Of a stretch of 52,337 nucleotides of DNA, positions 9,374-31,410 are shown piece by piece. Location: positions 1 to 52,337 of the forward strand of contig JBILJL010000001.1 of NCBI GenBank assembly GCA_044377255.1. The letters run 5' to 3'. Position numbers and translations under genes: made by a program. Every line of letters begins with the position of its first letter. Position 1 is the first letter of the stretch. The DNA comes from Bacteroidia bacterium. GTDB lineage: Bacteria > Bacteroidota > Bacteroidia > UKL13-3. Under the pieces are notes generated by a model. The model worked only from the letters and a program-made list of their open reading frames with translations. It was not told the DNA's origin and ran no database searches.

Positions 9374-9829
9374 CTACTTTTGCGACTTGAGCTTCCTTAA
9401 TAACTCGCGCTTAAACTCTTGCTCAGCCAGGTAAAGTTTCACTACTTTTTTTGTTGGAAGCACTTTCTTAAACTCTTGATTGTACTTTTTAAACAATTCA
9501 ACTTCAGAGGTTTTATAAGCTATCATATCATTTAATGCTTTATTTGCCTCTGCATCGGTCATTAGGTCAACATCTTTAACCTCCTCCATCATTTTACCTC
9601 TAAAATCTTTACGACTTTTTTCCATTTCTTCTGCAAATCGATTGTAAACTGGCCAAAATTTTTGCGCCTCCTCAGATGTTAAATCAAGTTTTTGAGTAAT
9701 AAAACCAACTTTCATGGCTTCAATTTTTTCTCTGTTAGGAGCACCTCCCTTTTGAGCAGATACTATACCTACACATCCCATTGCCAATAGGCAAATTATC
9801 ACTAGTTGCTTTTTCATTTTAATACTCAT
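9374..9829 (-). CDS. Secreted Spy/CpxP-like helical periplasmic protein, third gene of the ECF module
   Basis: Signal peptide ending VSA/QK, then a charged helical body (LTSEEAQKFWPVYNRF...). Its ATG shares one base with the upstream stop (TAATG). Confidence 0.5.
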   Translation of the reverse strand: MSIKMKKQLVIICLLAMGCVGIVSAQKGGAPNREKIEAMKVGFITQKLDLTSEEAQKFWPVYNRFAEEMEKSRKDFRGKMMEEVKDVDLMTDAEANKALNDMIAYKTSEVELFKKYNQEFKKVLPTKKVVKLYLAEQEFKRELLRKLKSQK

Positions 9830-10356
9830 TATAACTCTTCAATAATTAATGCTTCCTCACTATTCATTAACAAATCCTCTTCTAATTCATTGGATTTATT
9901 ACCTAACTTTTCTAACTCAACACACCAACCTGCATCACACAAAAACGCTTGATTTAAATCTCCAATATTTAGTTGTTCTGCAATTTCTTCCTCACTAATT
10001 TCTCCATTCAAAGTGATTCCTGCTTGTTTATTTGTTTCACCAAAAAACAACACAGAAACCAGCAAGACCGATGCTGCAATTCCTGTAAGCCAGTATACTT
10101 TTGCTTGCCTAAAAATAGGGGTCTTTTTAGCCTCTGAACCGATTGTTTTTTGCAAAATATTTTGGTTCAAGCTTTCAAAATAATCGGCTGGTACCTCAAA
10201 AGTGCTTTTAGCTAGTACTCCCTTTATTTCGGTTTGATCCAAATCTTTAGCCAACTGAACTTCTAATCGTTCAAAATAGCCAATAGGCGCCTCAAAACCT
10301 CCAGAAACTGGAAGATTTTTAAGAAACGATTCGCTATTGTTGATTTCTTGATCCAT
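9829..10356 (-). CDS. Putative single-pass membrane anti-sigma factor
   Basis: Sits immediately downstream of the ECF sigma gene. It has one central TM helix (VYWLTGIAASVLLVSVLFF) and an acidic C-terminus. I prefer ATG at 10356 over the TTG at 10371. The call rests on position only; I found no zf-HC2 motif. Confidence 0.45.
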   Translation of the reverse strand: MDQEINNSESFLKNLPVSGGFEAPIGYFERLEVQLAKDLDQTEIKGVLAKSTFEVPADYFESLNQNILQKTIGSEAKKTPIFRQAKVYWLTGIAASVLLVSVLFFGETNKQAGITLNGEISEEEIAEQLNIGDLNQAFLCDAGWCVELEKLGNKSNELEEDLLMNSEEALIIEEL

Positions 10357-10378
10357 GGTATTTAGACGCAATTTTTAT

Positions 10379-10939
10379 TTAATGGTTTAAACTCTTTTTT
10401 ACGATTTCTTCAATTTTCTTAACAGCAATATGATAGGAAGCTTTTAATCCACCAACACTGGTTCCAAGAATAGCTTCAATTTCCTCATACTTCATTTGCT
10501 CATAATATTTCATATTAAAAACCAAACGTTGCTTCTCTGGTAGGCTCAAAACTGCTTGTTGCAATAGCAACTCCAATTTATTCCCGTTAAAATAAGTATC
10601 AGAAACCAGTTGCTCTCCAAGTTGTTCTTGCAAACTCTCTATACTGATGTTTAAGCTAGCCTTTTTCTTTTGCAAAAACGCCAAAGCTTCGTTGGTGGCA
10701 ATTCGGTACAACCAAGTATATAATTGACTGCTTTCCCTAAAATCATCTAGCTTTTCCCAAACTTTAATAAAGGTGTTTTGAACCACATCGTCTGCATCAT
10801 CATGATTAACAACAATCCTCCTCACTTGCCAATAAACTTTTCTGCTATATCGAGACAACAGCAGCTTGTAAGCGGCCTGCTTGGTGGCTGGCACTTTAAA
10901 CTGCATAATTAACTCTTTATCGCTTAGTTCATTGCTCAT
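10379..10939 (-). CDS. ECF-type RNA polymerase sigma-70 factor
   Basis: Region 2 (DADDVVQNTFIKVWEKLDDFRESSQLYTWLYRIATNEA) and region 4 (LPEKQRLVFNMKYYEQMKYEEIEAILGTSVGGLKASYHIAVKKI). The likely start is ATG 10939 (MSNELSDKE). Confidence 0.85.
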   Translation of the reverse strand: MSNELSDKELIMQFKVPATKQAAYKLLLSRYSRKVYWQVRRIVVNHDDADDVVQNTFIKVWEKLDDFRESSQLYTWLYRIATNEALAFLQKKKASLNISIESLQEQLGEQLVSDTYFNGNKLELLLQQAVLSLPEKQRLVFNMKYYEQMKYEEIEAILGTSVGGLKASYHIAVKKIEEIVKKSLNH

Positions 10940-11074
10940 TTTAAAAACTATAACTTTAGGATACAAATTAAAGGAAATGGTTTAACCTTGGTGTAAAATA
11001 ATTGTTTCATCGAGGTTAAAGCGAATTTCATCTACTTATTTAAAACATTCATCCATAATTCTTTTAATGGACTT

Positions 11075-12533: not shown

Positions 12534-14027
12534 TCAGGCTTCCCTTTCAATTATTATTTCTGAAACAATCTTGCCAGAGCTCAGGCACAAAGGAATGCCG
12601 CCTCCAGGGTGAACACTTCCGCCACAGAAATACAAACCCTTTATTTTACTAGAAAAATTAGCATGTCTTAAAAAAGCCGCATACCTATTGTTACTTGCAT
12701 TTCCATACAATGACCCTCCAAAACTAGATGTTTTACTTTCTATTAACCTAGGATCTAAAACCGATTCGCTTTCAATTAATGGTTCAATTGGCTGCTTCAA
12801 TAATCTACTCAACTTAGCCAAAATATTAACTCTTGCCCTTGCAATATAATCGTCCCAATCTTGGCCGGTATTGGCTGGAGCATTTATCATTACAAACCAA
12901 TTTTCGCAATTTAAAGGAGCATCTGAGGACAAATATTTGCTACTAATATTTACATAAACAGTAGGATCGTTATAAAGCTCTTTTCTTTTAAAAATATAAT
13001 TGAACTCTTCTTCATAATTTGAACTGAAGAAAATGTTGTGCAAATCCATTTCACTAAATTCTTTTTTAATTCCCCAATAAAAAATTATTGCCGAAGACGA
13101 TTTCTCTTGGGCCAAGAGCTTTTCTGGGGCGGTTTGATCCGAAAGTAAATTGCGATAAGTAGGATGAACATCCATATTGGAAACAACCAAATCAGCTAAT
13201 ATAATTTGTTCACCTACAACAATTCCTTTTACGCTTCCACTATCCACTTTAATGGCATTAACCTTTTTATTAAAATGAAAATTTACACCTAATTTTTCAG
13301 CTGCAGCCATCAAAGAATTAGTAATTTGAATCATTCCATGCTTAGGAAAAAAGGTACCAATACCGTGTTCCAAATGCGGAATCATATTCAAAATTGCTGG
13401 AGCTTCAAATGGATTAGAGCCATTGTAGGTGGCAAATCGATTAAAAAATTGAACCAAATGCGGGTTTTTTAAATCGCGCTCATTTTGTTGATTCATGGTC
13501 TCAAACAAATTCAATGAAGGTAAAGCCAATATTCCTTTAAGGGCTTTTCTACTAAAATAAGTCTTCTTTAAGTGTAGACTTGATTCTAAAAAAAGTGGAG
13601 CCGTTGATTCATATTTTTTTTGGGCTTTGCTTAGATAATCGAATACCATTTGAGGGTCGATTCCAAGTTTCATTTGTAGCTCCTCTGCAAATAACTTCTG
13701 ATCGTGATAGGCAACCAACCTAATTCCATCTTCGTAAAAATAATGGCAACCTTTTTCTAATTGTATTACAGGAAAATCCTGCGCTGGCACTTCGGCTAAC
13801 GACAATAACTCTTGAACCAAGTGAGGCAAGGTAAACAGTGAAGGGCCTGCATCGAAACGATAATTACCTTGAGCAAAATCACTTAGTTTACCTCCAGGAT
13901 ATTCATTGGATTCAAAAACATTAACTTCAAAACCAGCATGCGCTAAACGAATGGCTGTAGCTAAACCTCCCACTCCAGCTCCTATAATGATTGCGTTCTT
14001 TTTCAAATTCTCTAGTATTTTGCACAA
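12534..14027 (-). CDS. CrtI-family FAD-dependent carotenoid desaturase (CrtD-like 3,4-desaturase, or possibly a CrtO-type ketolase)
   Basis: 497 aa with IIGAGVGGLATAIRLAHAGFEVNVFE...GGK...FDAGPS and a C-terminal GGSVHPGGGIP. It is distinct from the bona fide crtI at 16677. It has a non-ATG (TTG) start. Confidence 0.75.
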   Translation of the reverse strand: MCKILENLKKNAIIIGAGVGGLATAIRLAHAGFEVNVFESNEYPGGKLSDFAQGNYRFDAGPSLFTLPHLVQELLSLAEVPAQDFPVIQLEKGCHYFYEDGIRLVAYHDQKLFAEELQMKLGIDPQMVFDYLSKAQKKYESTAPLFLESSLHLKKTYFSRKALKGILALPSLNLFETMNQQNERDLKNPHLVQFFNRFATYNGSNPFEAPAILNMIPHLEHGIGTFFPKHGMIQITNSLMAAAEKLGVNFHFNKKVNAIKVDSGSVKGIVVGEQIILADLVVSNMDVHPTYRNLLSDQTAPEKLLAQEKSSSAIIFYWGIKKEFSEMDLHNIFFSSNYEEEFNYIFKRKELYNDPTVYVNISSKYLSSDAPLNCENWFVMINAPANTGQDWDDYIARARVNILAKLSRLLKQPIEPLIESESVLDPRLIESKTSSFGGSLYGNASNNRYAAFLRHANFSSKIKGLYFCGGSVHPGGGIPLCLSSGKIVSEIIIEREA

Positions 14028-16676: not shown

Positions 16677-18161
16677 ATGGGAAGAAAGAAAGCAATAGTA
16701 ATTGGGTCTGGTGTGGCAGGATTATCTGCAGCAAGTTACCTTGCCAAAGAAGGTTATTCCGTGACCATTCTAGAGAAAAATGAGCAAACTGGTGGAAGGG
16801 CAAGAAAATTTAGTGCCCATGGATTTACCTTCGACATGGGCCCAAGTTGGTATTGGATGCCCGATGTGTTTGAAAAATATTACCAGGATTTTGGCTATAC
16901 CACCTCAGATTTTTACGAATTACTTCGCTTAAGTCCAAGTTACCGAGTTATTTCCAAAAGTGGGGAAGCAGTTGATATTCCTGCAAACATGGATGAACTT
17001 GAAGCTTTGTTTGAAAAATTTGAACCCGGCTCAGCAACCAGATTACGTGGGTTTTTAAGTGAGGCCAAATACAAATATGAGGTAGGTATAAACGACCTTG
17101 TTTATAAACCTAGTTTAAGCATCCTTGAATTTGCTGATGTTCGTTTGCTTAAAGGCCTCTTAAAAATGGATGTTTTGAGCAATATGCGCAAACATATTGC
17201 TAGTATTGTAAGTAACCCCTTTTTACAAGAACTTCTTGAGTTTCCGGTACTGTTTTTGGGCGCATTGCCACAAAACACCCCTGCTTTATATAGCTTGATG
17301 AATTACGCAGACATGCAGCTTGGTACTTGGTACCCGCAGGGTGGGATGCATCTTTTTATACAGGCTTTTCAAACAATTGCAGAAAAGTTAGGTGTTACTG
17401 TTTTGTTGAACCAAGAGGTTGTTTCGGTTGATACGAAACAAGGGATGATAAGCGCTGTTAATACTTCAGATCAAACTTACTTGGCTGATGTGGTTATCAA
17501 TGCAAGTGATTACCACCACATGGATCAGGTAATATTAAGTCCCGAAAATCGCAGCTATTCAGCATCCTATTGGGCAAAAAGAAAGATGGCTCCATCTTGT
17601 TTATTGTATTATGTTGGGGTTAACAAAAAAATAACAAACCTATTACACCATAACCTATTTTTTGATACCGACTTCAACTTACATTCTAAAGAAATTTACA
17701 CCACCCCAAGCTGGCCAACAAAACCACTATTTTATGCTTCAGCTCCCAGCAAAACAGATCCTTCTGTTGCGCCAGATGGTTGTGAAAACTTGTTTCTTTT
17801 AATTCCTATTGCACCCGGATTAGAAGGCGACAATGAGGAGTTACGAGACAAATATTTTGAACTGATTATTAAAAGGTTGGAGCAGCAAACTGGAGAATCT
17901 ATTTTGCCTTTTGTAATCTATAAACGCAGTTATAGTGTGAAGGATTTTAAGGAAGATTACCATGCCTTTAAAGGAAATGCTTATGGGCTGGCTAATACAT
18001 TGGATCAAACCGCTATATTAAAGCCTAGCTTAAAAAGCAAAAAGCTTAAAAATTTATTTTATGCAGGTCAATTAACGGTACCCGGCCCTGGTGTTCCACC
18101 CAGCATAATTAGTGGAAAGGTTGCAGCTATGCAAGTGGTCAAAGAATATGGTAACGGTTAA
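16677..18161 (+). CDS. crtI: Phytoene desaturase (lycopene-forming)
   Basis: 494 aa with KAIVIGSGVAGLSAASYLAKEGYSVTILEKNEQTGGRA...FDMGPSWYWMPDVFE and a C-terminal GQLTVPGPGVP. Confidence 0.9.
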   Translation: MGRKKAIVIGSGVAGLSAASYLAKEGYSVTILEKNEQTGGRARKFSAHGFTFDMGPSWYWMPDVFEKYYQDFGYTTSDFYELLRLSPSYRVISKSGEAVDIPANMDELEALFEKFEPGSATRLRGFLSEAKYKYEVGINDLVYKPSLSILEFADVRLLKGLLKMDVLSNMRKHIASIVSNPFLQELLEFPVLFLGALPQNTPALYSLMNYADMQLGTWYPQGGMHLFIQAFQTIAEKLGVTVLLNQEVVSVDTKQGMISAVNTSDQTYLADVVINASDYHHMDQVILSPENRSYSASYWAKRKMAPSCLLYYVGVNKKITNLLHHNLFFDTDFNLHSKEIYTTPSWPTKPLFYASAPSKTDPSVAPDGCENLFLLIPIAPGLEGDNEELRDKYFELIIKRLEQQTGESILPFVIYKRSYSVKDFKEDYHAFKGNAYGLANTLDQTAILKPSLKSKKLKNLFYAGQLTVPGPGVPPSIISGKVAAMQVVKEYGNG

Positions 18162-18273: not shown

Positions 18274-19110
18274 ATGAAATCAATCTTCGACAATATCTCA
18301 ATTAAAAGCAGCAGGTTGGTTACTAAAACTTATAGTACATCCTTTTCATTGGGAATTAGTTTCTTGTCGAAACGATTTCAAGATCCAATTTACGCAGTGT
18401 ATGGCTTTGTTAGGTTGGCCGATGAAATTGTTGATTCTTTTCATGGTTATCCAAAAAGACAATTGTTGGAAGAATTCAAGGAGGAAACGTATAAATCTAT
18501 CAATAGGGGAATTAGCACTAATCCAATTCTAAATAGCTTTCAACAAGTTGTGCATGAATACAACATTGACCATTCTAGTATTGAAACTTTTTTGAAAAGC
18601 ATGGAAATGGATTTAATGCTAAACACATACACCCAAGATGGTTATGAAAACTATATTTTAGGGTCTGCCGAAGTGGTTGGCTTAATGTGTTTAAGGGTTT
18701 TTGTTGAGGGAGATAACCAGCAATATGAAAAGCTTAAACCCTATGCAATGAAATTAGGTTCAGCTTTTCAAAAAATAAATTTTTTACGCGATTTCAGAGC
18801 TGATAAAGAAGATTTAGGAAGGATTTACTTTCCACAAATGAAGGAAAATGATTTCACAGAGGAAGTGAAAAAAGAAATCGAACTAGACATTCAAAGAGAT
18901 TTTGAATCTGGCTATCAAGGTATTAAACTCCTGCCAAAAGACACTCGATTTGGTGTTTATGTAGCTTATATTTATTACTCTAGGTTATTAAATAAAATAA
19001 CCCAGTTGCCGGCCCAAAAAATAATAGAAGAGAGAATTCGAATAAGTAATAAGCAAAAATATGCTTTGTTTTTTGGCTCGTATTTGAGGCATAGCCTTAA
19101 TATGTTATAG
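18274..19110 (+). CDS. crtB: Phytoene synthase
   Basis: 278 aa with YSTSFSLGISFL...YAVYGFVRLADEIVD...GSAEVVGLMC...FQKINFLRDFRADKEDLGRIYFP, matching the squalene/phytoene synthase signatures. Confidence 0.9.
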   Translation: MKSIFDNISIKSSRLVTKTYSTSFSLGISFLSKRFQDPIYAVYGFVRLADEIVDSFHGYPKRQLLEEFKEETYKSINRGISTNPILNSFQQVVHEYNIDHSSIETFLKSMEMDLMLNTYTQDGYENYILGSAEVVGLMCLRVFVEGDNQQYEKLKPYAMKLGSAFQKINFLRDFRADKEDLGRIYFPQMKENDFTEEVKKEIELDIQRDFESGYQGIKLLPKDTRFGVYVAYIYYSRLLNKITQLPAQKIIEERIRISNKQKYALFFGSYLRHSLNML

Positions 19111-19604
19111 TGAATAGCATGCTTTATTTGTTTTCTTGCCTGATCCTATTGACCCCAAAATTTGATAAAGATTTACTTACTATGCGCGCTGAATATTACC
19201 AAGCCATCAATAGCGAGGAAATTGCAATTAAGTTAGACAAAGAATTAGGCGCAATTAGCAATAAAACGTTTTTACAAATGGGCTATTTTGGTGCAAATAA
19301 AATGATACTTGCCAAATTTGCCTTTTGGCCTAATACCAAATATGCTTTGTTTGTTGAGGGTAAAGCAATTTTGGAAGAGGCAATTAAAAACGATCCAAAA
19401 AATATTGAATTGATTTTCTTGCGTTATCCAGTTCAACTAAACGCACCATCCATATTAGATTATAATCAAAATGTTGCAAGCGATAAAAAAACACTCGTTA
19501 ACGAAGTAAAATCAATAAAAGACAAAGATTTGAAATCTCGAATTTTGGTGTTTCTATTAAGCGATGGTAAATTAACGGAAGCGGAAAGGAAAGCTATTCA
19601 ATGA
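19110..19604 (+). CDS. Hypothetical helical protein embedded in the crt operon
   Basis: GTG 19110 overlaps the crtB TAG (or ATG 19119). Its stop overlaps the idi ATG (ATGA at 19601-19604). It has a hydrophobic N-terminus with a possible lipobox (LFSC). I recognise no family. Confidence 0.55.
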   Translation: MNSMLYLFSCLILLTPKFDKDLLTMRAEYYQAINSEEIAIKLDKELGAISNKTFLQMGYFGANKMILAKFAFWPNTKYALFVEGKAILEEAIKNDPKNIELIFLRYPVQLNAPSILDYNQNVASDKKTLVNEVKSIKDKDLKSRILVFLLSDGKLTEAERKAIQ

Positions 19605-20113
19605 GCCCCGAAATGGTAATTCTTGTTGATGAAAACGATAATCAAATTGGGTTCATGGAAAAACAAGAGGCACATGAAAAAGGAGTGCTTCATCGAGCAT
19701 TTTCTATTTTAGTTTTTAATTCAAAAGGAGAACTTCTGTTACAACAAAGAGCTTTAAATAAATATCATTCTGGTGGCTTATGGACCAATACCTGCTGCTC
19801 TCACCCTCGCCAAGGCGAAACAACGGAAGAAGCGGCCCACCGCAGATTAAAAGAAGAAATGGGCTTCGATTGCCCCCTCAAACTTCACCAGTCTTTCATC
19901 TATAATGCGCCGTTTGAAAATGGACTAACCGAACATGAATTAGACTATATTTATATTGGACAATACGATGAAAACCCACAATTTAATCCAATAGAAGTGC
20001 ATACTTTTAAATGGATTTCTATGGAAGAATTATACACTCAATTAACATTGGAACCTAAGCAATTTACTGTTTGGTTTAAGATGATAATGGATCATTATTT
20101 GACTGATAAGTAG
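19601..20113 (+). CDS. idi: Isopentenyl-diphosphate delta-isomerase, type 1 (Nudix)
   Basis: 170 aa with HRAFSILVFNSKGELLLQQRALNKYHSGGLWTNTCCSHP...EEAAHRRLKEEMG...TEHELDYIY. Confidence 0.9.
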   Translation: MSPEMVILVDENDNQIGFMEKQEAHEKGVLHRAFSILVFNSKGELLLQQRALNKYHSGGLWTNTCCSHPRQGETTEEAAHRRLKEEMGFDCPLKLHQSFIYNAPFENGLTEHELDYIYIGQYDENPQFNPIEVHTFKWISMEELYTQLTLEPKQFTVWFKMIMDHYLTDK

Positions 20114-27202: not shown

Positions 27203-27262
27203 AAAAAAAATGTGCAAATGCTTTAAATCTCTATTTTACTTTGAGATGTAATGCACTTGCAC
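27203..27262 (-). terminator. Probable intrinsic terminator of the rhodopsin gene
   Basis: In minus-strand sense, starting 22 nt after the stop: GTGCAAGTGC...(inner ATCTC/GAGAT)...GCATTTGCAC, followed by A then T8. The outer stem is 10 bp with one mismatch. Confidence 0.5.
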
Positions 27263-27283
27263 ACTTAAAAATATGTAAATATT

Positions 27284-28000
27284 TTAGTCTTCGCTTCTAC
27301 TTAAAGTGTAGATAACTAAACCAAATCCAATTTTATTAATTGCGTCTGCAATATTATATACAATATCCATTGCATGTGAAGCAGCAGCTGGATCAGATAC
27401 CAATTGAATTCCAAACAAACCACCTGGTGTGCCTAAAATGTAACCCAATGGATAAATTGCCCATCCTACTAAAACAAACCAACCCAATACCCTAGTTGCT
27501 TTTGCAACTTGAACACCAGCTGTTTGAGCCAAATTAGCCACTTCTCCAAACCAAACTAGGTAAACAATGTAGAAGTAAGCAGCACCAGAAATAACACCCC
27601 ACATAACGCTGTTTCCTCTGTCTATTGTTTCACCAAAATAGCCAGTTACTAGCATTACCAAAGATGCAAAAATCAATTTCCAAAGCAAGCCAATTTTAGC
27701 ACCTGCTTTTTTAGTGATAAGATAAAACTCAACACACATCAACGGCACAGTAAGAATCCAATCAACATATCTAAAGAATGTTGGTGAATCTCCAGTTTCT
27801 AAATTGTAACCTCTCATGTAGTAGTAATGTACTGCTGCAATAAAGGTGATTAAACCAGAAACTAAAACAGAAGTTCTCCATTTTTGAGATGTTGTACTTA
27901 ACTCAAAAAAGAAAAACACAGAAGCGGCCATCATGGCCATTGTTCCGATAAAAAACGTGAACGCCACGTAATTATCACTTGCAATTTTTAAATGTTCCAT
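27284..28000 (-). CDS. Microbial rhodopsin, proteorhodopsin-type light-driven proton pump (DTE motif)
   Basis: 238 aa with 7 hydrophobic helices. Helix C is RYVDWILTVPLMCVEFY (D80, T84, E91). AAVHYYYMR carries the PR-type His. The Schiff-base Lys is in NIADAINKIGFGLVIY (K223). Confidence 0.92.
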   Translation of the reverse strand: MEHLKIASDNYVAFTFFIGTMAMMAASVFFFFELSTTSQKWRTSVLVSGLITFIAAVHYYYMRGYNLETGDSPTFFRYVDWILTVPLMCVEFYLITKKAGAKIGLLWKLIFASLVMLVTGYFGETIDRGNSVMWGVISGAAYFYIVYLVWFGEVANLAQTAGVQVAKATRVLGWFVLVGWAIYPLGYILGTPGGLFGIQLVSDPAAASHAMDIVYNIADAINKIGFGLVIYTLSRSED

Positions 28001-28108: not shown

Positions 28109-28151
28109 AGTTTTGTCATATTTTATATTTTTATAAAATTATGACAAAACT
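28109..28151. promoter_or_regulatory. Perfect 12-bp inverted repeat AGTTTTGTCATA-N19-TATGACAAAACT between crtY-blh and the rhodopsin gene
   Basis: Read directly from the sequence. It starts 12 nt after the crtY-blh stop and ends 109 nt upstream of the rhodopsin ATG. It could be a terminator hairpin or an operator. Confidence 0.4.
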
Positions 28152-28162
28152 ATGAGTCTGTA

Positions 28163-30208
28163 CTATTTTTTAGAATCGTAAAAAAGCTGATTTCCAATCA
28201 ATTGATAAAACTTATTCATAGCTATAATGTGCGGAAAACTGATGCAAGAAATGAAGATGAAAAAAGTTTTCATCCATTCGTCTAGGCTAGATTTCAAAGT
28301 AAAACTGTTGAAATAATAAAGTAAGCACCCAAAAAGTATAAAGGCCCCAAGGTTAAATGGCAAAGCTTTTGCAAAAATTTGCTTGTTATTTAAGTGTAAA
28401 CCCTTTTTTATGTGTGTCCAACCATTTAAACTGTGTTGCCCAATAAAATATATTCCAAATGAGGTAATGAGCGGTAATTGCACACAAATTAATAAAATTG
28501 TTGCGCTTATAAACATGGCTAATCTGCGCTCCCAATATGCCCATAAAATTGATATAATGGCTAGGACCATGGTTATAGCAATACTTATCTTGTTTGTAAG
28601 CGGTATGGTATTTACTTTCATGTTACCTAGAATTTGATTTGTTTCTGGTAAATGACCCAATAATAAAATGCCTAAAAGAAATATTCCCCATATCCAATTA
28701 TTTAGGGTTCTCTTTTTTTTAAACTGCCATTCATGCATATCGGCCTCCCCAAAATGCCAAGCAGAGTATATTAGAAAAAAGAGCAATGCCAAGTTGGGAA
28801 CAAATAGCCAAAGCAATAAAAACGCAAATGCCTTGCTCAAATAGCTTATAACAAATGCAAGCCTTATGTTATGTTTTTGTTTCTCCTTAACTAAGAGGTG
28901 ATCAACTGCGCCGTGGGGTATTCCTAGAAAAAACAAGCCTGTTGTAAAAATGCCTATTTGTATGGGTTCAAATATTGATGGCGTATTTATATGTATTGCC
29001 CAAAGTACTAAGGTAAATAGGAATAAAAATATTGGAGCAGCCAAATATTGAAAACGCACTTTTGCGTCTAAATGCCATGCTATTAAAAAAGGTTTAATGG
29101 GTAGGCTAATCAATATTCTTATATCTTGCGATAGGGATGTTTTTTCATCTAAAAACTGCAAAACATTTATCAACTTATTCTTGTCAAATAAGGCTTTAAA
29201 GATGCCACTGCCTGCTTCTGGTTGGTTATTTAATATGATTAACAACAACCTATCATAAAATCGAAACCTTTTTGGACTCTCTTGTTTTATTGGTGGTGCC
29301 GTCATTTGAATACCTTCTGCCAGTTTTTCCGCATGTTTAAACATGTTCTTAAAAGCATAACCTGTGCTTGGTTTAATGGCCCCACTTCTTCCTCCAATTG
29401 CTATCAAACCTGGCAGCGTATTTTCCGAAATTCTTAATGTGCTCATGGGTATGCAGCCAGTTTCAATGTGTGATACGGTGCAGGTGCCAAATCGTTTTGT
29501 TATGTATTCATTTAATATAGGTTCAGCGCTAATAGGGTCAAGGATTTCTTTGCCGAATCTTGTTAATTCCACTAAGATTTTGCCAGAATCGTAAGGTAAT
29601 ACATAAATGAATTGGGTATAACCTTGTTGCGCTATCCTAAAATCCATTAAATCGATGGCCTGTTTAGTTTCTTCTTTATTTTCTGGTTGTACCACATACC
29701 CTATAAACGACTGTTTTAGGTGAACCTCGTTTTTTTTAGCTGTTAAATAGCTTGGTGGTCGGCTATCGAAAACTTGGGCAGAATGCCAAACTCCTTCCTC
29801 TGTTATAACATTAAGCCCTTCATTTATTGCCTCAATACTTATTACATTAGTTTGTATTCTTTGGATGTGATAATTTTCCAAGATTCTTCGCATTTCATGG
29901 TATACATCAATACTAGCTATTTGCATGTATTCCAAAGGTTTAATGGGTTCTAGTGCTCTTCCATTTACGCACATTTCTTCCCATTTCTGACTTATTAAAT
30001 GCTTACAATTTATACTTATTTCATCTGTAGGTTTTGCCCAAAAACAGTATGTTTTGTCGTTGTGAATCTTGGAATCTGGATCAATCACCAAAATTTTTTT
30101 ATTTTTTAACAAGCCTCTTCGCTCCATGCTCATTAACAAAAGCGTTGCGGAAGCTCCTGCACCTGCAAACAAATAATCAAATTTTGGGTATGTTGTGCTT
30201 TCCAACAT
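28163..30208 (-). CDS. crtY-blh: Fusion protein: lycopene beta-cyclase (CrtY, about aa 1-385) plus Brp/Blh-family beta-carotene 15,15'-dioxygenase (about aa 395-681)
   Basis: The N-terminus has the FAD fold DYLFAGAGASATLLL...VIDPD...YCFW and later IAIGGRSGAIKPSTGYAF...FLDEKTS. The C-terminus is polytopic with the four His motifs GIPHGAVDHLL, SAWHFGEADM, GQHSLNGW and FPHIIAM. It is a single uninterrupted 681-codon frame. Confidence 0.8.
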   Translation of the reverse strand: MLESTTYPKFDYLFAGAGASATLLLMSMERRGLLKNKKILVIDPDSKIHNDKTYCFWAKPTDEISINCKHLISQKWEEMCVNGRALEPIKPLEYMQIASIDVYHEMRRILENYHIQRIQTNVISIEAINEGLNVITEEGVWHSAQVFDSRPPSYLTAKKNEVHLKQSFIGYVVQPENKEETKQAIDLMDFRIAQQGYTQFIYVLPYDSGKILVELTRFGKEILDPISAEPILNEYITKRFGTCTVSHIETGCIPMSTLRISENTLPGLIAIGGRSGAIKPSTGYAFKNMFKHAEKLAEGIQMTAPPIKQESPKRFRFYDRLLLIILNNQPEAGSGIFKALFDKNKLINVLQFLDEKTSLSQDIRILISLPIKPFLIAWHLDAKVRFQYLAAPIFLFLFTLVLWAIHINTPSIFEPIQIGIFTTGLFFLGIPHGAVDHLLVKEKQKHNIRLAFVISYLSKAFAFLLLWLFVPNLALLFFLIYSAWHFGEADMHEWQFKKKRTLNNWIWGIFLLGILLLGHLPETNQILGNMKVNTIPLTNKISIAITMVLAIISILWAYWERRLAMFISATILLICVQLPLITSFGIYFIGQHSLNGWTHIKKGLHLNNKQIFAKALPFNLGAFILFGCLLYYFNSFTLKSSLDEWMKTFFIFISCISFPHIIAMNKFYQLIGNQLFYDSKK

Positions 30209-30362: not shown

Positions 30363-31151
30363 TTAAGTGTTGACAGTTGTTCTTTCTGTCAATTGTCGGT
30401 AAACACCGTTCCACAATTCAATTCTTTGTTTTAAGGAATGTATAACTGATTCTTCTGCTTCTTTCCAATATTGCTCGTTGTCATTACAAAGATTGGCCGT
30501 CATTTGTAAAGCAAGGTTACTGTGGTGGTCACCATCTACTTCGATGTGCCTTTCTATATAATATTTAAAGACAGAGATTTCATTAGGAAAATTCTTGTGT
30601 ATTTCATTTATGATGGAGATAAACATACCTGGGATTAAATCTTCTCGGCCAAAAGTAAAAATGGCTGATTGCAAATACGCTTTATCACTCTCAATAACTT
30701 TAAAAGTAAAATCTACAAATTCTTGTGCTTCCTTTGGAGTGCCTGAGGATAAATAAGCGGAGTTAAAGTCGCTGGTGTTTTTCAATACACTTGTAAAAAC
30801 TTCAATTTTAGTTGTATCAGCTCCACATTGTTTCATGGCATCTAAGTATAATTCAAAATGACTTTTCCTAACACCATTTAAGTCTACGTCTGATTCTTCA
30901 CCTACAACTATTTCATTAATAAGATACCTTGTGTCTGCAGTTCCTCTGGGAAACCAAGGAACAGATGTACAAGTCAAGTTACGCTGTAACGTTTTTAATA
31001 AAGACATAAAGTCCCAAACTGCGTACACGTGGAATTGCATAAATACTTTTAAGTCGTTTATGTCTTTAATTGCTAAATAAACTTTATGATTAATAATCTC
31101 TTGTCTTAAGGGTTCAATTGCTTTTTTAATTTTTTCAATTTGAATACTCAT
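30363..31151 (-). CDS. DUF3050 protein (heme-oxygenase-like helical fold)
   Basis: From ATG 31151: MSIQIEKIKKAIEPLRQEIINHKVY...FMQFHVYAVWDFMSLLKTLQ...YIERHIEVDGDHHSNLA. The track's upstream extension to 31265 lacks coding character. Confidence 0.7.
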   Translation of the reverse strand: MSIQIEKIKKAIEPLRQEIINHKVYLAIKDINDLKVFMQFHVYAVWDFMSLLKTLQRNLTCTSVPWFPRGTADTRYLINEIVVGEESDVDLNGVRKSHFELYLDAMKQCGADTTKIEVFTSVLKNTSDFNSAYLSSGTPKEAQEFVDFTFKVIESDKAYLQSAIFTFGREDLIPGMFISIINEIHKNFPNEISVFKYYIERHIEVDGDHHSNLALQMTANLCNDNEQYWKEAEESVIHSLKQRIELWNGVYRQLTERTTVNT

Positions 31152-31410
31152 TTTTGCTTTTTGATTTTTAGGTAAACATTTAAAATTAACTAATGTTTGA
31201 ATTTCTATACCAATTTGTGAATTCCAATTCCAAAATCTTATGCTGCAATTAATTCGATTAAACACTTTGTCAATTAATAAATAGCTCGTAGATGGAATTT
31301 AACTAATATTTATTGCGCTTTTGCGAAGGATTTAATCATTTGTTTAATTTACTGGAACCAATTTTAGAACTTTTTTTGAATTATCACTTGAACACGTAAA
31401 TTTGATTTAT

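Follow-up and report, generated by a model that had tools for sequence, protein, structure and literature searches.

Introduction

The question raised by this locus is whether a bacterial rhodopsin that resembles an ordinary proteorhodopsin (PR) also possesses a site at which a carotenoid could serve as a second chromophore. The locus lies in a stretch of 52,337 nucleotides (referred to here as the window) from contig JBILJL010000001.1 of a Bacteroidia bacterium (GenBank assembly GCA_044377255.1), and the gene under study occupies positions 27284..28000. A preliminary description of the gene, made from the letters without database searches, read its product as a green-tuned proton pump with a PR-like core, and drew attention to a glycine in helix E, Gly135, that by manual alignment fell at residue 156 of xanthorhodopsin (XR), the site of an opening (fenestration) through which a carotenoid ring contacts retinal. 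We examined that reading by multiple alignment, profile comparison, structure prediction, annotation of the surrounding genes, and comparison with published carotenoid-binding rhodopsins. The results make it probable that the gene product is a light-driven pump of the Bacteroidota PR clade that absorbs green light and moves protons outward, with a carotenoid window at Gly135.

The residue at the XR-156 position is either bulky or Gly in environmental PRs, with Gly in about 43% of them (Chazan et al., 10.1101/2022.08.24.505090). Almost all PRs of the Bacteroidota pair this Gly with a Met at the spectral tuning site, the green-type residue of this group, and SAR11 PRs have Phe or Trp at the XR-156 position (10.1101/2024.11.08.622755). 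Binding of zeaxanthin or lutein has been shown for the Gly-type PRs EinA29G6 (whose source is an uncultured freshwater flavobacterium), KR1, and TsPR; for EinA29G6 and KR1, binding of both carotenoids was reported, with energy transfer of 35-40% (10.1101/2022.08.24.505090). NM-R1 of Nonlabens marinus S1-08 has been solved with myxol (9JOV) and with zeaxanthin (9JOU) (Fujiwara et al., 10.1101/2024.11.08.622755). In these complexes, the ring of the carotenoid occupies the fenestration and makes van der Waals contact with the retinal ring and with Tyr-194; the bound pigment harvests light and also speeds the photocycle (10.1101/2024.11.08.622755).

Results

Pump residues of the rhodopsin

The rhodopsin is encoded by a single open reading frame (ORF) with an ATG start. 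Because the ORF listing begins each frame at the first start codon past a stop, the N-terminus cannot be extended upstream. The Bac_rhodopsin family (Pfam PF01036) covers residues 13-233 with an E-value of 9.8e-40; this match, the helices expected of the family in an AlphaFold model, and top Foldseek matches that are all PRs agree on the seven-helix microbial rhodopsin fold. All eight residues singled out in the preliminary description (H58, R77, D80, T84, M88, E91, G135, and K223) were found by script to be numbered correctly. H58 lies in the helix B motif AAVHYYYMR; R77, D80, T84, M88, and E91 lie in the helix C motif RYVDWILTVPLMCVE; G135, with the codon GGT, lies in the helix E motif VMWGVISGAAYFYIVY; and K223 lies in the helix G motif DAINKIGFG.

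To place these residues, 49 sequences were aligned with MAFFT L-INS-i, comprising rhodopsin references and 40 full-length representatives at 50% identity. The XR and bacteriorhodopsin (BR) references were verified against PDB entries 3DDL (273/273 residues) and 1O0A (249/249 residues), respectively; sequences of Kin4B8, thermophilic rhodopsin (TR), Gloeobacter rhodopsin (GR), green-absorbing PR (GPR), the Med12 blue-absorbing PR (BPR), and NM-R1 were taken from HMMER alignments. The BR landmarks D85, T89, L93, D96, and K216 aligned to D80, T84, M88, E91, and K223, respectively. The protein thus carries Asp-Thr-Glu (DTE) at BR positions 85, 89, and 96, and not the N-D-Q or N-T-Q motif, as had been proposed. 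In NM-R1 the corresponding D87, T91, and E98 are described as the acceptor and donor set (10.1101/2024.11.08.622755). Asp219, 4 residues upstream of K223, occupies the position of BR D212; together with K223, D80, and R77 (in the conserved RY-DW motif), it completes the Schiff-base Lys and counterion set. H58 falls in the column of GPR H75, which is His in GPR, BPR, NM-R1, and the XR clade, and M88 falls at the tuning site GPR-105, with the Met that is usual for Bacteroidota PRs. By homology, the protein is almost certainly a DTE proton pump.

The preliminary description also stated that the protein has no cleavable signal peptide, and regarded this as a departure from classical marine PRs. 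The ORF begins only 7 residues ahead of the stretch that aligns with the solved GPR chain near its N-terminus, which is too few to accommodate a signal peptide. GPR itself is synthesized with a cleavable one. NM-R1, which aligns from its residue 9, likewise has no room for one; the observation therefore stands, as a trait that the two proteins have in common and not as a special one.

Placement in the proteorhodopsin clade

Among PDB sequences, the best phmmer matches were the two NM-R1 structures, 9JOV and 9JOU (E ~4e-90). GPR and BPR structures scored 1e-50 to 1e-44, and GR, XR, and Kin4B8 scored 5e-28 to 1e-22. Over trimmed alignment columns, identity was 65% to NM-R1, 44% to GPR, and 28-32% to members of the XR clade. 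A neighbor-joining tree (distance-based, without bootstrap) paired the rhodopsin with NM-R1 inside the PR clade, and placed XR, GR, TR, and Kin4B8 in a separate clade. Moreover, the insertion of about 17 residues in the B-C loop of the XR clade is absent from the rhodopsin in the MAFFT alignment.

An AlphaFold model, built on a shallow alignment (43 sequences, at least 88% identity), had a mean predicted local distance difference test (pLDDT) score of 74, with helix E scoring 86-94 and the F-G loop 53-68. When this model was searched with Foldseek, the top match was chain A of 9JOU, the zeaxanthin-bound NM-R1 (TM 0.84/0.86, 64% identity), and the top matches, all of them PRs, had TM values of 0.72-0.86. 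Taken together, these comparisons assign the rhodopsin, on sequence and predicted fold, to the PR clade and not to the XR clade; the PR-like core that had been proposed is borne out by both the phmmer E-values and the tree.

Gly135 and the predicted carotenoid site

Had a bulky residue, rather than Gly135, aligned with XR-156, the preliminary reading would have fallen by its own terms. In the 49-sequence alignment, the column of G135 holds Gly in XR (G156), Kin4B8 (G153), TR, GR, and NM-R1 (G142), Trp in BR (W138) and Med12 BPR, and Phe in GPR. The same register was obtained when the profile of the rhodopsin clade was compared with that of the XR clade by hhalign (probability 99.95%), which paired W134-G135 with XR W155-G156, and the HMMER pairwise alignment with NM-R1 runs without a gap through helix E, with G135 opposite G142. 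Among the more distant 50%-identity representatives, this column contained Phe in 21, Gly in 13, and Trp, Leu, or Tyr in 2 each. Close homologues were uniform: G135 and M88 were each kept in 150 of 150 full-length sequences, Y187 was invariant in the same 150, and T191 and P192 were invariant in the 43-sequence clade alignment. Given that G135 is kept throughout while synonymous sites are near saturation (pS ~0.69), it is no chance feature.

Published work ties three positions to carotenoid binding. In Kin4B8, the G153F substitution abolished binding (10.1101/2022.08.24.505090). The Tyr at XR Y207 (Kin4B8 Y204) is conserved across all known binders, and S208A in Kin4B8 lowered zeaxanthin binding to 2%, a polar residue at this position being characteristic of proteins that bind 3-hydroxy xanthophylls (PMC12308411). 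The Tyr touches both chromophore rings, and the polar residue forms the floor of the fenestration (PMC12308411; 10.1101/2024.11.08.622755). All three are present here: G135 at XR-156, Y187 at XR Y207, Kin4B8 Y204, and NM-R1 Y194, and the polar T191 at Kin4B8 S208 and NM-R1 T198. The quartet of residues in transmembrane helix 6 reads Y-I-T-P in this protein, compared with Y-I-T-E in EinA29G6, Y-M-T-D in KR1, and Y-M-T-P in NM-R1, all proven binders. The two-chromophore interpretation is thus supported by the sequence, and on these grounds we infer carotenoid binding.

Coordinates of the residues discussed, and of the genes and terminator described below, are listed in Table 1.

Table 1. Features of the rhodopsin locus and of the carotenoid genes in the window
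Feature	Position	Strand	Basis
Proteorhodopsin gene, 238 aa, DTE-type, Bacteroidota PR clade	27284..28000	-	ORF, Pfam, PDB sequence matches, Foldseek
Lys223 codon, retinal Schiff-base Lys (BR K216)	27332..27334	-	Alignment
Helix F codons, Y187-I188-L189-G190-T191	27428..27442	-	Alignment; residue roles from PMC12308411 and 10.1101/2024.11.08.622755
Gly135 codon (GGT), fenestration residue (XR G156, NM-R1 G142, BR W138)	27596..27598	-	MAFFT, hhalign, homologue conservation
Helix C codons: R77, D80 (acceptor, BR D85), T84 (BR T89), E91 (donor, BR D96)	27728..27772	-	Alignment
Met88 codon, spectral tuning site (GPR L105, BPR Q105)	27737..27739	-	Alignment
His58 codon, PR-type His (column is His in GPR, BPR, and XR clade; Met in BR)	27827..27829	-	Alignment
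Likely intrinsic terminator of the rhodopsin gene, hairpin followed by eight U	27203..27266	-	Inverted repeat, RNA fold
CrtY-Blh fusion, 681 aa, directly upstream of the rhodopsin gene	28163..30208	-	Pfam, NCBIfam
CrtD, 1-hydroxycarotenoid 3,4-desaturase	12534..14027	-	NCBIfam NF042421 equivalog, 649 bits (cutoff 500)
CrtI, phytoene desaturase	16677..18161	+	NCBIfam NF058655, 720 bits (cutoff 640)
CrtB, phytoene synthase	18274..19110	+	Pfam SQS_PSY, 2.8e-42
Isopentenyl-diphosphate isomerase (type 1; Idi)	19601..20113	+	NCBIfam NF002995, 169.7 bits (cutoff 127)

Retinal and carotenoid genes in the window

The other ORFs of at least 100 amino acids (five that are nested in or overlap longer ORFs were excluded) were compared with Pfam, selected ones were compared with NCBIfam, and unmatched ones were scanned again with E-values up to 1. 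The gene next to the rhodopsin gene encodes, in one polypeptide, a lycopene beta-cyclase (Lycopene_cycl, residues 13-374, 2.4e-36) and a Brp/Blh-type beta-carotene 15,15'-dioxygenase (BCD, residues 425-667, 1.8e-37), with TIGR03753 also scoring above its cutoff; from these domain matches, it is the predicted source of retinal. The fusion adjoins the PR gene in 51 of the 57 related loci that hold both domains; its sequence is only 35-57% identical among related loci. A full-text literature search found no paper that describes a CrtY-Blh fusion.

CrtI and CrtB, which are predicted to synthesize lycopene, and Idi lie 8-11 kb from the rhodopsin gene, and with CrtD the range extends to 15 kb. The preliminary description had mentioned carotenoid enzymes beyond the retinal route, in the plural. 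That part of it was upheld by CrtD, and by CrtD alone: CrtD was the sole carotenoid enzyme outside the retinal route within the window, and the Pfam and NCBIfam scan of the 52-kb window yielded no CrtZ (3-hydroxylase), CruF, CrtW, or CrtA-OH. As judged from its family assignment, CrtD would fit a monocyclic xanthophyll of the myxol or saproxanthin type; myxol is the ligand in 9JOV.

Several further elements were noted around these genes. Between crtB and idi lies a plus-strand ORF of 164 amino acids (19110-19604) whose start overlaps the crtB stop. It matched no Pfam or NCBIfam family, even at E-values up to 1, and could be ruled out as CrtZ, having no His boxes; it may be an uncharacterized partner in the carotenoid cluster. 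A gene for an ECF-type sigma-70 factor (10379-10966, minus strand), followed by two ORFs without a family match (9829-10371 and 9374-9829), is located 1.5 kb from crtD; that this group is a sigma/anti-sigma pair regulating the carotenoid genes is speculation. A DUF3050/HamA heme-oxygenase-like gene (30363-31265) precedes crtY-blh on its strand; it was considered as a member of the rhodopsin module, and probably is not one, since only 3 of the 80 related loci have it as a neighbor.

With regard to expression signals, the likely terminator hairpin lies 18 nt past the rhodopsin stop and has a predicted stability of -25.2 kcal/mol (z = -4.7), which none of 200 shuffled sequences equaled. A consensus terminator scan missed it owing to its 11-nt loop. 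An AT-rich, near-perfect inverted repeat (28109-28151), with 16-nt arms of 94% complementarity and an 11-nt spacer, is located between the crtY-blh stop and the rhodopsin start, and could be a weak terminator or a regulator binding site. Matches to a sigma-70-type promoter were no more common than in shuffled sequence, and the consensus used is not that of the Bacteroidota. The window, with a GC content of 36%, also encodes SusC/RagA, SprB repeats, and type-9 secretion sorting domains, which are markers of the Bacteroidota.

Distribution and selection

At least 21 public contigs carry the exact rhodopsin protein, which belongs to a 90%-identity cluster of 1204 sequences. Measured over the best tblastn segment, the 80 top-ranking genome loci were 87-97% identical, and nearly all of them come from metagenome-assembled genomes (MAGs), labeled as Chitinophagaceae, Crocinitomicaceae, Flavobacteriales, Sphingobacteriales, and others. 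Most of the MAG titles among these loci name lakes, reservoirs, or rivers (Loclat, Mendota, and others), and the lineage looks largely freshwater, unlike the classical marine PR. Seven loci carry implausible titles (Bifidobacterium, Methylotenera, Synechococcus, Comamonadaceae, Rhizobium, Polynucleobacter, and Competibacteraceae), most likely as a result of mis-binning or mislabeling in the source records.

When 69 full-length, gapless genes were compared, protein identity was 88-97% (median 92%) and nucleotide identity about 80%, with pS ~0.69 and pN ~0.06, and the GC content of each rhodopsin gene tracked that of its host locus. Recent horizontal transfer as the cause of the high protein identity was ruled out by the nucleotide identity, the pS value, and the locus-tracking GC content. 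Such high protein identity alongside near-saturated synonymous sites implies long-standing, strong purifying selection and no recent sweep. Compared with the adjacent CrtY-Blh fusion, the rhodopsin appears from these sequences to be under unusually strong constraint.

Discussion

Does the protein bind a carotenoid?

Several observations weigh against a carotenoid antenna in this protein. First, Gly at XR-156 is necessary for carotenoid binding and not sufficient for it. Second, the ring-holding residues of NM-R1 are largely replaced: W139, L143, M195, W201, and Y202 correspond to V132, V136, I188, G194, and L195 here, so that three aromatics are lost (W139, W201, and Y202), while the changes of L143 to V136 and M195 to I188 are conservative. 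Third, the F-G loop (27389-27442 on the minus strand, residues 187-204, GGLFGIQLVSDPAAASHAM) is 7 residues longer than that of NM-R1; it includes G194 and L195 in place of the ring-contacting W201 and Y202, is near-invariant within the clade, and has low confidence in the AlphaFold model (pLDDT 53-68). Fourth, neither CrtZ nor CruF turned up in the window. In addition, binding modes are reported to differ between rhodopsins (10.1101/2024.11.08.622755).

These points give some substance to the strongest alternative, namely that the protein is a plain single-chromophore PR in which the Gly is a lineage trait serving packing or the photocycle, and in which the remodeled pocket and longer F-G loop block productive carotenoid binding. 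The lost aromatic residues, the lengthened loop, and the lack of a CrtZ match in the window speak for this explanation. Nevertheless, we consider it unlikely. The positions at which this protein departs from NM-R1 differ among proven binders as well, and hence are not requirements; in the MAFFT alignment the ring-holding positions vary among XR, Kin4B8, and NM-R1, that of W139 being Gly in XR and Leu in Kin4B8, and because of this variation the ring-holding residues of NM-R1 do not define the group. By comparison, the Gly, the Tyr, and the polar residue at Kin4B8-208, which are backed by mutagenesis or by universal conservation, are all present. Furthermore, each of the four Gly-type PRs named in the two preprints (KR1, EinA29G6, TsPR, and NM-R1) bound xanthophylls. 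Since the NM-R1 ring pocket is only partly conserved here, binding is something that we infer; in our judgment the evidence from sequence leans toward real carotenoid binding by this rhodopsin in its host.

The changes in the ring pocket could still alter carotenoid affinity or selectivity. A Gly-Tyr-Thr core that is kept, three aromatic ring clamps that are lost, and a longer F-G loop that hardly varies would also suit a protein whose binding geometry departs from that of the marine NM-R1/KR1 type, or that selects a different carotenoid, for example one of the myxol or saproxanthin type made with the help of the nearby CrtD. We regard this as a tentative possibility.

A pump for an ion other than the proton, or a sensory rhodopsin, is very improbable. 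The automatic JGI names of homologues do include "sensory rhodopsin" (others read "bacteriorhodopsin"), but these are generic labels; the protein has the DTE motif rather than NDQ or NTQ, both the acceptor and donor carboxylates are in place, no transducer gene is adjacent, and NM-R1, the closest characterized homologue, pumps protons (10.1101/2024.11.08.622755). Least credible of all is a pump of the XR family with a classical keto-carotenoid antenna, since the Gly, Tyr, and DTE that it would have in common with XR, GR, and Kin4B8 are outweighed by sequence scores to XR-clade structures that trail those to NM-R1 by 60-70 orders of magnitude and those to GPR by about 20, by the missing B-C insertion and the position in the tree, and by the polar floor T191, as in hydroxy-carotenoid binders, where XR and GR have a hydrophobic one.

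Proposed mechanism

On the reading that we favor, that of a proton pump with a carotenoid window, the protein would function as follows. By homology with BR, GPR, and NM-R1, retinal would be linked as a Schiff base to K223 and isomerized by green light, with M88 setting the green absorption. The Schiff-base proton would pass to the acceptor D80, flanked by R77, D219, and the PR-type H58, and E91 would act as the cytoplasmic donor that reprotonates the Schiff base, for a net outward pumping of protons. Gly135, in place of the Trp or Phe that closes the pocket in BR, GPR, and BPR, would open a lateral window in helix E. Through it, a xanthophyll (zeaxanthin or a compound of the myxol type) could place its 3-hydroxy beta-ionone ring against the retinal ring, stacked on Y187 and resting on the polar floor formed by T191. 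The bound carotenoid may then serve as a blue-light antenna, as an accelerator of the photocycle, or as both, as in NM-R1. Lycopene made by way of CrtB, CrtI, and Idi would be converted to retinal by the single CrtY-Blh polypeptide.

Significance

With an antenna, PRs let heterotrophic bacteria draw on a broader part of the light spectrum; in lakes and oceans, such proteins may make up a sizeable fraction of rhodopsin phototrophy. The idea of a fenestrated antenna in Bacteroidota PRs has already been published (10.1101/2022.08.24.505090; 10.1101/2024.11.08.622755), as have the diagnostic residues and the carotenoid-bound structure of a homologue that is about 63% identical. The rhodopsin described here is an ordinary member of this group, and its analysis confirms known biology without opening a new question; only the altered ring pocket and lengthened F-G loop of its clade set it apart. 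As a representative of a very abundant and very strongly conserved lineage, it is a reasonable protein with which to ask whether the marine result (binding of myxol or zeaxanthin, energy transfer, and a faster photocycle) holds.

Comparison with known rhodopsins

The XR clade (Salinibacter XR, 3DDL; GR, 6NWD; Kin4B8, 7YTB and 8I2Z) resembles this protein in its Gly fenestration, conserved Tyr, and DTE pump motif, and its mode of operation, with the carotenoid ring set against the retinal ring, is the same. It differs in overall sequence (28-32% identity) and in its long B-C loop insertion, which this protein lacks. XR and GR differ further in having a hydrophobic pocket floor and binding 4-keto carotenoids, whereas the floor here is the polar T191.

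GPR (from SAR86; 7B03 and 2L6X) and BPR (4JQ6 and 4KLY) belong to the same PR clade, with about 44% identity, and have in common with it the DTE motif, the equivalent of His75, and the Schiff-base Lys. In these proteins, however, Phe (GPR) or Trp (BPR) at the position of G135 shuts the fenestration, and Leu or Gln replaces the tuning Met. The solved homologues are pentamers or hexamers.

Closer to the present case are EinA29G6 and KR1, both PRs with Gly at XR-156, Tyr at Kin4B8-204, and Thr at Kin4B8-208. As compared on four residues of transmembrane helix 6 (from PMC12308411), EinA29G6 also has Ile at Kin4B8-205, as does this protein. At Kin4B8-209 the three diverge, with Pro here, Glu in EinA29G6, and Asp in KR1; because Pro192 is invariant in the 43-sequence clade alignment, EinA29G6 falls outside the clade of this rhodopsin. 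EinA29G6 (UJI09384) was absent from the cluster members of ten close homologues.

NM-R1 is the closest solved relative by both sequence and fold, with about 63% identity over 233 aligned positions. The DTE motif, the helix B His, the tuning Met, and the binding positions G142/G135, Y194/Y187, and T198-P199/T191-P192 are common to the two proteins. They are set apart by the ring residues W139, W201, and Y202 of NM-R1, which are V132, G194, and L195 here, and by the F-G loop (GGLFGIQLVSDPAAASHAM here versus GWYDSIFGGWDL in NM-R1). NM-R1 comes from a marine isolate, whereas most relatives of this rhodopsin are MAGs whose titles refer to lakes, reservoirs, and rivers.

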